Assembly: GCA_034722995.1 (NCBI GenBank)
Contig: JAYEOL010000026.1
Span: 1-64,000, forward strand
Length of the DNA stretch: 64,000 nucleotides
Source of the DNA: Candidatus Cloacimonadota bacterium
GTDB taxonomy: Bacteria > Cloacimonadota > Cloacimonadia > JGIOTU-2
Direction of reading: 5' to 3'
Shown here piece after piece: positions 18,201 through 21,200 of the stretch. The position numbers were made by a program. The stretch's first letter is position 1. Each line of letters starts with the position of its first letter.

Positions 18201-21200
18201 TTTCAAGAGGCATAAATTTCTTAGCATTAACTTCACCTCTGCCATCTAATGGAATACCAAGTGGATTTATTACTCTGCCCAAAAGCTTTTCACCAACTGG
18301 AGTTTGCACAATATTTCGTGTCCTTTTAACAATATCTCCTTCTTTTATCCGGTTGGTTTCGCCTAATACAATACATCCAACATTATCTTCCTCTAAATTG
18401 AGAGCCATTCCATACACATCATTATCAAACAAAACTAATTCACTTGCCATAATATCTTTTAGACCGTATACGCGAGCAATACCATCACCAACTTCAATTA
18501 CTCTGCCAACCTCTGAGACATCAATGCGGTAATCGTACTTCTCTATCTTCTCTTTGATAATTCTACTGATTTCCTCTGGTTGTATCTTCATATTTACCTT
18601 TCCATTATCTGAAAAACAGGTTTTTACTTTAAACTTAATTTAAAATCTTGCAGTAGAAAATACTTATATAATATAAATCTAAAATTCTTTCTTAAAATTC
18701 AATAAGCTATTTGTTATTGAAGCATTTATTGCCAGATTTTCATTATACACTAAAAATCCACCTTTTATTCTCTTATCAATATTATGTTTAAGATGCACTT
18801 CACCTGATACATAGCTTTTAACAAATTCATTGATTTTCTTTAAAGTTTTAGAGTCAATTGGGTAAGCGGTTAGCAATTGGAAATCATAAATATTTAATCT
18901 TTGATGAATCTGGCTGATTATTTGATGACAGATATCCTTTAAAAAAAATATTCTATCAGCATCAACAAGTACTTTCAAAAAATCATTAAACCTATCACTA
19001 ATTTTCAGCCCTTCTGCAAGTTTTTCTAATACCTCTTTCTTGAATCTATTTTCAGCAACGGGCGAAATCAAAAATTCTTCTATTTGCTTGTTATCCCGCA
19101 AGAAATTCGTAAGAATCTCTACTTCATTTTCTAATAACTTTAGCTCATCAGACTGAAAAGTTTGTACTAATGCATTAGAATACCGTTTTGCAATAATATT
19201 CCTAATCAACTTTCATCCTTCGTCCCGATTGAATCGGGACTATGGAGAACGGGCTTTCTCTCCTTTGATTGCTTTCTCCCAGTTTTTATAAGACTGTTTA
19301 TCAGTTTAATATCATCTTTTTCTGTAAGTTTTTTCCCTATGATTTTATCAGTAAGTGAAACAACAAACTCTCCAATTTCTTTTTCAATACTCTTCTTCGC
19401 TTTTTTAACTTCACTTTCCATAATCTTTTGGGTTTCAGCCATTAAGACATCTTTTTCGGTATTAGCCTCTTTCAGTATTTGTTCTCCAGTAAGCTTGGCA
19501 TTAGTAATAGCTTCATCTCTAATTTCTCTTGCTTCTTTTCTTGCTTTATGCAACATTTCCTTCTGTGATTTTAACATCTTAGCAGACTCCTCTTGACCTC
19601 TTTTAGCATTTTCTAAATCGTCCTTAATTTGTTTCTGCCTTTTATTAAGGAAACTAACAAGTGATTTATACAGCAGTTTTTTCAATATTATAAGAAGCAA
19701 AATAAAGTTCAAGATGACTAAGATCAAAGTAAAATCAATACTTATCATAAATTAATCTCCAGATAAAAATAGCAATTATACTGCAAAAATTAAAAGCAAA
19801 GCGATAACCAATGAATATATTCCTGTTGATTCAGAAACAGCCTGGCCAACCAACATTGTTCGGGTTATCAGTCCTGCATTTTCTGGTGAACGGGAGATAG
19901 ATTCGCATGCTTTACCTGCTGTAAATCCTTCGCCAATACCAGGTCCCAAAGCACCCATACCCATACAAAGTCCTGCTCCTAAAAGAGCAGCTGCTCTAAT
20001 TATTTCTGACATTTTTCCTCCTACTTCCTACCACTAAGGCACAAAGATATAAAGATTAATTTCGATTTTCCTTCTTTAAACCTTTTCTTATTTTGTGACT
20101 TTGTGGTATAATTAATATTATTCATAACAATATTTTTTATGCTACAAAAATTAACAAAAATGCAACCACTAAAGAATATATTGATGTTGATTCTGCAACA
20201 GCAGCACCTACAAACATTGTTCTCGTTAATAATGGGGATTGTTTAGGAAATTTGCTTATTGACTCAACTGATTTGCCAGCTACAATACCTATACCAAGAC
20301 CAGGACCAAATGTTCCAAATCCCATAGAAAGTGCTGCACCTAAAAATGCAAAGCATTTTGCGATACTATTTCCAGTAGAAGTAGAATATAAAAGTAAAAT
20401 TGATACAACCAGAGCAAAAACCGCAGAGGTTTCGGATAAAGCTTGTCCAATAAGCATATTAGCAGTAAGAAGTTTAGCTTCTCTTGGCTGTCTCCCAATC
20501 CCTTTGCAAGCTTGACCTCCAGTATAACCAATTCCTAAACCTGTTCCAACGCATCCAGTTCCTATTACTAAACCTGCAGCAAAAAGTGAGGCTACCGTCT
20601 GCCAACCAACATTAGAATCTCGCATACCTCCAAATAAAAGAAGCATCGCAACAACAAGAGCAAAAATTGCACCTGTTTCTGTTATTGCCTGGCCAATTAG
20701 CATTGTTCTTAATAGAGAATCACTTGCTTTAGGCTGTCTCATTAATGCTCGTGTAGCATTGGCAGCTATAAATCCTTCACCAATCCCTGCACCAACTGAT
20801 GAGATGCCCACGGCAAGTGCTGCACCTAAATATGATGCAATAGAAATAAAATCAACTAAATTCATTCAATCCATCTTATCTATTTAATTGCTACTGCAGT
20901 ATACGATAATGCTAACATTGTAAAAACAAAAGCCTGTATAGTGCCTATGAACAAACCAAAGAAGATACTTAGACCAATAGGAATGAGTATAAATCTTATC
21001 AAATTTGAGATAACTAAAATTATTATAGCTCCTCCTAAAATATTCCCAAAAAGACGGAAAGAGATAGAAATTCCCTTTGCAACTTCGCCCACAAGGTTTA
21101 AAGGTGCCATAAAAAAAAATGGTTCTGTATAACTTTTTAGATATTTCTTAAATCCTTTTTCTTTTATTGCTGAAAAGTGAACAACTAATATTACCATCAA

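Follow-up and report, generated by a model that had tools for sequence, protein, structure and literature searches.

The window analysed here, a stretch of 64,000 nucleotides from a Candidatus Cloacimonadota genome, carries a canonical F-type ATP synthase operon on its minus strand, in the order atpZ, atpI, an inserted gene, a, a three-hairpin c, a single-hairpin c, b, delta, alpha, gamma, an inserted methylase gene, beta and epsilon. The component genes are as follows.

22613..22849, minus strand: AtpZ/gene 1 protein (PF09527)
22243..22629, minus strand: AtpI assembly factor (PF03899)
20880..21719, minus strand: subunit a, atpB, with the essential Arg222 present
20137..20865, minus strand: three-hairpin c subunit, 242 aa, three ATP-synt_C stretches (Pfam, PF00137)
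19776..20012, minus strand: single-hairpin c subunit, 78 aa, one ATP-synt_C stretch (Pfam)
19206..19748, minus strand: subunit b, atpF (Pfam)
18679..19209, minus strand: subunit delta, atpH, 176 aa, full length; OSCP profile 1-171 of 172
17035..18591, minus strand: subunit alpha, atpA (Pfam)
16169..17035, minus strand: subunit gamma, atpG (Pfam)
13768..15201, minus strand: subunit beta, atpD (Pfam)
13311..13721, minus strand: subunit epsilon, atpC (Pfam)

The survey's finding that started this analysis, namely that the one ATP synthase operon of the genome encodes a 242-aa c subunit of three hairpins and, after it, a Na+-type c of 78 aa, is borne out: both reading frames are in place, with three and one ATP-synt_C stretches, respectively, and the rotary ATPase content of the genome (96.9% complete) amounts to one alpha, one beta, four c hairpins and one subunit a, with no V-type I and no further c, a or F1 subunits found. 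A second rotor that could act as a back-up was not found in this genome or in four single-contig relatives. The genome also encodes RnfD, a decarboxylase Na+-pump beta subunit and a membrane pyrophosphatase. The gene inserted between atpG and atpD (15243-16121, minus strand) encodes an N6/N4 DNA methylase, has a GC content of 0.30 and is missing at this position in 5/5 examined relatives with an intact operon, and that between atpI and atpB (21730-22098, minus strand) encodes a 23S-IVP four-helix-bundle protein. Elsewhere in the window, genes for a ParE-family toxin and a Phd/YefM-like antitoxin, the latter under the Pfam cut-off, adjoin parA/parB (25568-26133, minus strand). A repeat search around the operon returned only the hairpin repeats and chance matches.

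The three hairpins of the fused subunit are 32-41% identical among themselves, and the third is the closest to the single c (56%, versus 44% and 41% for the other two). At identities of 32-56% to one another and to the single c, the hairpins are therefore not the product of an assembly duplication, and an artefact or recent duplication is likewise ruled out by 117 full-length homologues. The predicted model of the 242-aa protein (mean pLDDT 94.3, pTM 0.89) is all-helical and fits three hairpins, in agreement with the six-helix fold reported earlier; its best fold match is, as also reported, the c1 subunit of Acetobacterium woodii (4BEM chain J, rmsd 2.0 over 166 columns), which is the best PDB sequence match as well.

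Other rotary enzymes were considered and rejected. N-ATPases have N-type a and b subunits and lack a separate delta, and their gene order begins with beta and epsilon. Here, delta is separate, the order is canonical, and the scores for TIGR03306 (109 versus a cut-off of 302) and TIGR03321 (57 versus 225) are too low; TIGR03322 is passed by the triple c only as a sum over three hairpins. An archaeal triplicated A-type c/K is excluded by the F-type subunits, the missing V-type I and an NF004913 score of 66.7 versus a cut-off of 211. In the two-stator F1Fo of the Chloroflexus type, the N-terminal domain of delta is shortened (PMC12002316). This arrangement is ruled out too, and a second stator is not indicated, because the 176-aa delta is full length and covers positions 1-171 of the 172 in the OSCP profile.

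Na+ sites of the fused and single c subunits

The Na+ site of a c ring is built from Glu65 and Gln/Glu32 of one hairpin and from Val63 O and Ser66 of its neighbour, and is completed by Thr67 and Tyr70 (PMC2359735, PMC3692424). Within a fused subunit, the S/T-S/T-x-x-Y stretch is supplied by the preceding hairpin, which acts as donor (ProAD supplement, PMC11738941), a rule that is also found in bioRxiv 2026.10.01.756066, and the Na+-coupled F-type c motif is given by ProAD as [Q/E]-Xn-E-[S/T]-[S/T/Q]-x-x-Y (PMC11738941). The single c of this genome contains the full two-carboxylate Na+ motif, comprising P24, E28, V59, E61, S62, T63 and Y66 (E28..E61-S-T-G-I-Y66). The corresponding residues of the triple c are A26/E30/E63, then T64-G65..F68, in hairpin 1; T108/I112/E145, then T146-S147..F150, in hairpin 2; and P188/I192/E225, then S226-T227..Y230, in hairpin 3. 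Hairpin 1 carries a full Na+ half-site (E30/E63), hairpin 3 carries a full donor face (S226/T227/Y230), and the inner interfaces are stripped, with Ile at position 32 and Phe at the donor position.

The observation that all three hairpins have Glu stands (E63, E145, E225), but the three residues do not make three Na+ sites. Since such sites span neighbouring hairpins, the Glu-Glu-Glu triple of this genome reads, by its residues, as one complete Na+ site in hairpin 1 and two bare carboxylates in hairpins 2 and 3. Because of the Ile at position 32 and the lack of a neighbouring Tyr, E145 and E225 are predicted to bind H+ rather than Na+; these bare carboxylates may be silent, serve as stepping stones or act as true H+ carriers. 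The F1Fo enzyme itself is predicted to be Na+-coupled.

Distribution and site patterns among relatives

Within the phylum, triple-c matches were found, as the survey had it, in 129 of 232 genomes, with 117 full-length by count from the listing. F-type subunit a is present in 128 of the 232, and a multi-hairpin c match accompanies it in 122 of the 128 (in one case a two-hairpin form), which upholds the claim that such subunits are the rule in Cloacimonadota with an F-type enzyme; the remaining six comprise three N-type operons, two contig breaks between a and c, and one a at a contig edge. V/A-type I was detected in 96/232 genomes, 91 of which belong to family f6 (98 genomes). This family is without the triple; the 3/98 matches noted there are N-type operons. 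The split between F- and V-type clades agrees with PMC12590816, and no mention of fused c subunits was found in the available part of that source. Extra rotors among the triple-bearing genomes are represented by a clear V-type I match in G022 and an additional N-type operon in G223. The N-type ATPase operons (L221-L224) come from three V-type Cloacimonadota genomes and one triple-bearing genome, and two of them have an apparent split alpha or beta.

Site patterns were analysed in 110 fetched loci, fewer than all listed matches; L018 (contig end), L029 (two hairpins), and L030 and L105 (broken or cut) were left out, which gave 106 complete triples. At position 65, these have the patterns EQE (45), QQE (28), EEE (10), EQQ (9), GQE (5), GQQ (5) and QQQ (4), such that Glu65 is found in hairpin 1 of 64, hairpin 2 of 10 and hairpin 3 of 88 triples; the earlier figure of 33/38 for the hairpin-1 carboxylate was thus an over-count. 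The 18/106 triples with Gln in hairpin 3 are spread over several lineages. The acceptor half (E/Q32 with E65) is seen in hairpin 1 of 57/106 triples and never in hairpins 2 and 3, the donor half (S-T-x-x-Y) in hairpin 3 of 103/106 and never in hairpins 1 and 2, and the donor face is retained in all 49 triples whose hairpin 1 is without a full site. Position 32 is Ile or Val in all 106 third hairpins. The single c conforms to P[E/Q]..ESTxxY in 103/105 relatives and follows the triple in 101/106 Cloacimonadota loci; the essential Arg of subunit a is retained in 103/103 loci. Hairpin 2 has Asp at position 67 in 15/106 triples (L031-L035, L041, L050-L052 and others), where it faces the bare Glu of hairpin 3 and may be a substitute ligand.

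It is conceivable that the bare carboxylates (Ile32 and Glu65, without Tyr70) carry H+ and the others Na+, which would amount to about nine Na+ and two H+ per turn in this genome. The uniform Ile/Val at position 32 of the third hairpins is in keeping with such a mixed-ion rotor, as is the occurrence of Ile in hairpin 2 whenever Glu is found there (8/8, in the family of this genome); H+ is favoured by more hydrophobic sites (PMC7594442), and sites of this kind are scored as H+ under the ProAD rule (PMC11738941). A very H+-selective Glu, however, may stay protonated and act like the Gln that replaces it in some third hairpins, two Glu-Glu-Glu triples from another family have Ser32, not Ile, and the extra proton of F. 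nucleatum is not transported (PMC3692424). On balance, we consider a mixed-ion rotor quite improbable.

Hairpin number in the relatives ranges from 2 to 6. The 324- and 405-aa homologues and the four- and five-hairpin c subunits of Desulfobacterota that were noted previously are all confirmed, and six-hairpin forms of 483-487 aa can be added. Across 292 distinct proteins with 3-6 hairpins, the donor half is found in the last hairpin of 288, and it is kept in 85/85 of those whose last hairpin is without its own Glu. At the inner junctions, Tyr70 and a full site on the next hairpin occur together in 91 cases, are discordant in 23 and 10, and are both missing in 668, a tally of related, not independent, sequences for which no p-value is claimed. 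Tyr70 follows the site state of the next hairpin, not the previous one, which is the same donor direction as in the previous-hairpin rule. Retention of the outer faces with loss of the inner ones is what would be expected of a block inserted among single c subunits in a ring.

The gene order (Z, I,) a, multi-c, single c, b characterises 80 loci of named genomes, most of them Desulfobacterota; 73 of these loci encode four hairpins, 6 five and 1 three, and a single c comes next in 79. Five cultured Desulfobacterota possess another a-c locus besides the multi-hairpin cluster, which is therefore a second Fo there, whereas in Cloacimonadota the multi-hairpin rotor is the only one found. Among the longer proteins, six-hairpin c subunits (P0121-P0124, P0126, P0127) have Glu65 in hairpin 1 only, the five-hairpin P0020 has it in none of its hairpins, and in a large divergent four-hairpin group of 307-329 aa (P0240, P0257, P0277 and many others), most members have Glu in hairpins 1 and 3 and many have Asp in hairpin 4. 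P0211, P0218, P0276, P0285 and P0242 are c/K proteins with 7 to 15 hairpins.

In a quick tree of 139 hairpins and 79 columns, which is of low resolution, the inner hairpins of most lineages cluster (SH-aLRT 93) and the first hairpins do so more weakly (SH-aLRT 88), suggesting a common origin, with dead hairpins gained repeatedly in the inner positions. Mapped on a subunit-a tree of 103 loci, site state changed at least 5, 5 and 8 times in hairpins 1, 2 and 3, respectively. In the family of this genome, hairpin 2 exists as two linked alleles, T28/I32/E65 in 8/16 genomes and P-or-A28/N32/Q65 in 8/16, and the largest difference between this genome and an EQE congener lies in hairpin 2 (78-82% versus 87-94%). 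Hairpins 2-3 of two genus-g4 genomes are closer to those of a g1 genome than to those of most of their own genus, and L005 and L004 are 88-93% identical in hairpins 2-3 versus 63-67% in the flanks. From these comparisons, the hairpin-2 alleles look exchanged between genera. The two-hairpin L029 reads like an inner deletion that would have fused the first half of hairpin 2 to the second half of hairpin 3.

A likely mixed ring and its alternatives

Nine of the 106 triples are carboxylate-free, and the donor face S-T-x-x-Y is kept in all nine. As this face could be used only by a single c, its retention is the strongest point for a mixed ring. Six of the nine come from single-contig genomes of 1.5-1.6 Mb, between which dN/dS is 0.017-0.06 (in the 7/15 pairs with estimable dS) and pN is 0.03-0.12 versus a pS of 0.53-0.82; by these measures, the carboxylate-free triples appear to be under purifying selection and not relics, and pseudogene status is ruled out. 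V-type I was found in 0/6 of these genomes, the rotor set is four c hairpins and one a in 3/3 tested carboxylate-free genomes, and beta, gamma and RnfD are present in 5/5 tested. Family f4 (L023-L028, L191, L192) combines single-contig genomes of 1.5-1.6 Mb and a carboxylate-free triple with a split atp operon, in which gamma and beta are encoded elsewhere; a, triple, single c, b, delta and alpha are still together in 2/2 examined cases. An ATP importer (PF03219) was matched in 0/5 small f4 genomes but likewise in no control genome, so that this negative carries no information.

The conservation of carboxylate-free forms, retained in streamlined genomes, would also be understandable if the triple were mainly structural, a pre-fused arc from which assembly starts or which determines ring size or the docking place of gamma/epsilon, with site loss as tolerated decay. 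The hairpin-1 loop, which is RQP/KQP in 96/106 triples and mostly RSP in the single c (85/105), and the wide variation of site states (seven patterns) point the same way. Set against this are the behaviour of hairpin 2, which switches as a linked set (8 versus 8 of 16 genomes) with alleles that look exchanged between genera, and the Glu kept in hairpin 3 of 88/106 triples. We regard a mainly structural role as unlikely, and it and a geared mixed ring are not mutually exclusive.

That triples form a ring of their own, as a V-type-like alternative rotor, or that several alternate with singles in a three-fold c12, seems very improbable indeed. The donor face of hairpin 3 could complete hairpin 1 of another triple in 57/106 cases, and three-fold symmetry of the ring would fit the three steps of F1 and do away with the problem of a single gap; a homo-ring, however, would have no full Na+ site in 49/106 and no carboxylate at all in 9, although these triples retain the donor face, and the triple has the weaker predicted ribosome site. 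The predicted site is stronger for the single c in 89/101 Cloacimonadota and 76/76 Desulfobacterota loci, and is -10.2 kcal/mol for the single c versus -4.1 kcal/mol for the triple in this genome, although site strength is a poor indicator of copy number and the choice of start codons favoured the best site for both genes. This bias suggests few triples per ring.

The ratio of ions to ATP is thought to be set by ring size. The mixed ring, in which the triple sits in the c ring among single c subunits, is likely, and probably there is one triple per ring of about 11 hairpins, with about 9 Na+ per turn instead of 11. In this reading we infer that triple and single c assemble together, with one copy of the triple in a ring of 11 hairpins, a size borrowed from other Na+ F-type rings (PMC3692424). 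The fused block would replace three full Na+ sites by one, leaving 9 full sites per turn here and 8-9 in relatives, and the Na+/ATP ratio would be 3.0 (9 sites) or 2.67 (8 sites) versus 3.67 for 11. Between Na+ sites, the rotor would then have to turn through 98-131 degrees with no Na+ stroke. Thermal and elastic slack might carry it across when the phosphorylation potential is low, and it would turn freely if the enzyme works as an ATP-driven pump. Fewer sites would mean a higher ATP yield per Na+ and a higher synthesis threshold, which by computation moves from 90 to 111-124 mV at 32 kJ/mol.

Support for the mixed ring is indirect, coming from ligand polarity, the carboxylate-free triples, the ribosome-site bias and the precedent of A. 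woodii, whose 9:1 hybrid ring makes ATP from 90 mV (PMC9171764). The higher yield and threshold expected here agree with the proposal by Litty and Muller that anaerobes living on little energy give up sites without changing the size of the ring (PMC9171764). In a fused Bacillus PS3 c10, one E56Q hairpin abolishes ATP synthesis, and adjacent E56D pairs are less harmful than separated ones (PMC8809890). Given that one E56Q stops synthesis in PS3, a rotor that skips 2-3 sites is difficult to reconcile with the role of a synthase, and the site-state changes (at least 5, 5 and 8) also fit relaxed constraint, against gearing. The triple is conserved and, in mechanistic terms, awkward. It is tempting, if doubtful in its entirety, to see here a natural geared motor in the only ATP synthase of most Cloacimonadota lineages, in which a covalent block would deprive up to 131 degrees of the ring, an arc longer than one F1 step, of any Na+ stroke; the version in this genome would be refilled with H+-type sites to give a hard-wired mixed Na+/H+ rotor, and hairpin 2 would be an on/off module exchanged between genera.

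Comparison with known systems

The only solved F-type case with dropped sites drops one, and the Cloacimonadota triples offer a natural series of 0-3 carboxylates per three-hairpin block, which opens to direct test both the number of successive sites that a rotor can skip and the possible use of two ions in one ring; four- and five-hairpin forms are held by cultured sulfate reducers. In the literature searched, no F-type enzyme was found to have been described with a c subunit of three hairpins, although the 2015 survey of hybrid rotors by Brandt and Muller, which reportedly listed some twelve anaerobes that have c genes of both F and V type, may cover longer fusions. ProAD groups c subunits by hairpin number and includes a two-hairpin class in which one site is for H+ and the other for Na+ (PMC11738941), and its tables may therefore list these triples. 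For Desulfatiglandales, 2-4 atpE copies are reported, with no fusions described (PMC13343851).

The triplicated c/K of methanogens forms a homo-oligomeric ring. The c/K of Methanocaldococcus jannaschii and other methanogens shares the three fused hairpins (PMC2359735) but belongs to an A-type (A1Ao) enzyme, in contrast to the F-type operon with a separate single c described here. The engineered single-chain c10 of Bacillus PS3 resembles the triple in its covalently fused hairpins with unequal sites, and differs in being artificial and H+-coupled, with synthesis stopped by one E56Q. The four- to six-hairpin c subunits of Desulfobacterota and other lineages have the same polarity and the same order (a, multi-c, single c, b), and their inner hairpins cluster with those of the triples, but in five cultured species they belong to a second Fo cluster and not to the only rotor found.

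The closest counterpart is the c1 of the F/V-hybrid Na+ ring of A. woodii and Clostridium aceticum. Its gene is likewise a fused one that immediately precedes the gene for a single Na+-type c within an F-type operon; its first hairpin bears Phe70 and its last one Tyr70, which is the polarity seen here, and it provides fewer sites than hairpins. It has two hairpins instead of three and one incomplete site instead of 2-3 consecutive ones, and the 242-aa protein is without an N-terminal extension (residue 4 aligns to 21). The first hairpin of c1 retains Q/E32 together with E65, as does hairpin 1 here (E30/E63). The last hairpin of c1 is without Glu65 and keeps the donor Tyr, whereas the last hairpin here has Glu, Ile32 and the donor Tyr, the Glu being lost in 18/106 relatives. 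The triples are further set apart by their bare Ile32/Glu65 sites, by their carboxylate-free versions and by their near-universal presence in the F-type enzymes of the phylum. We regard the Cloacimonadota triple as a variant of the hybrid rotor and not as a separate category.
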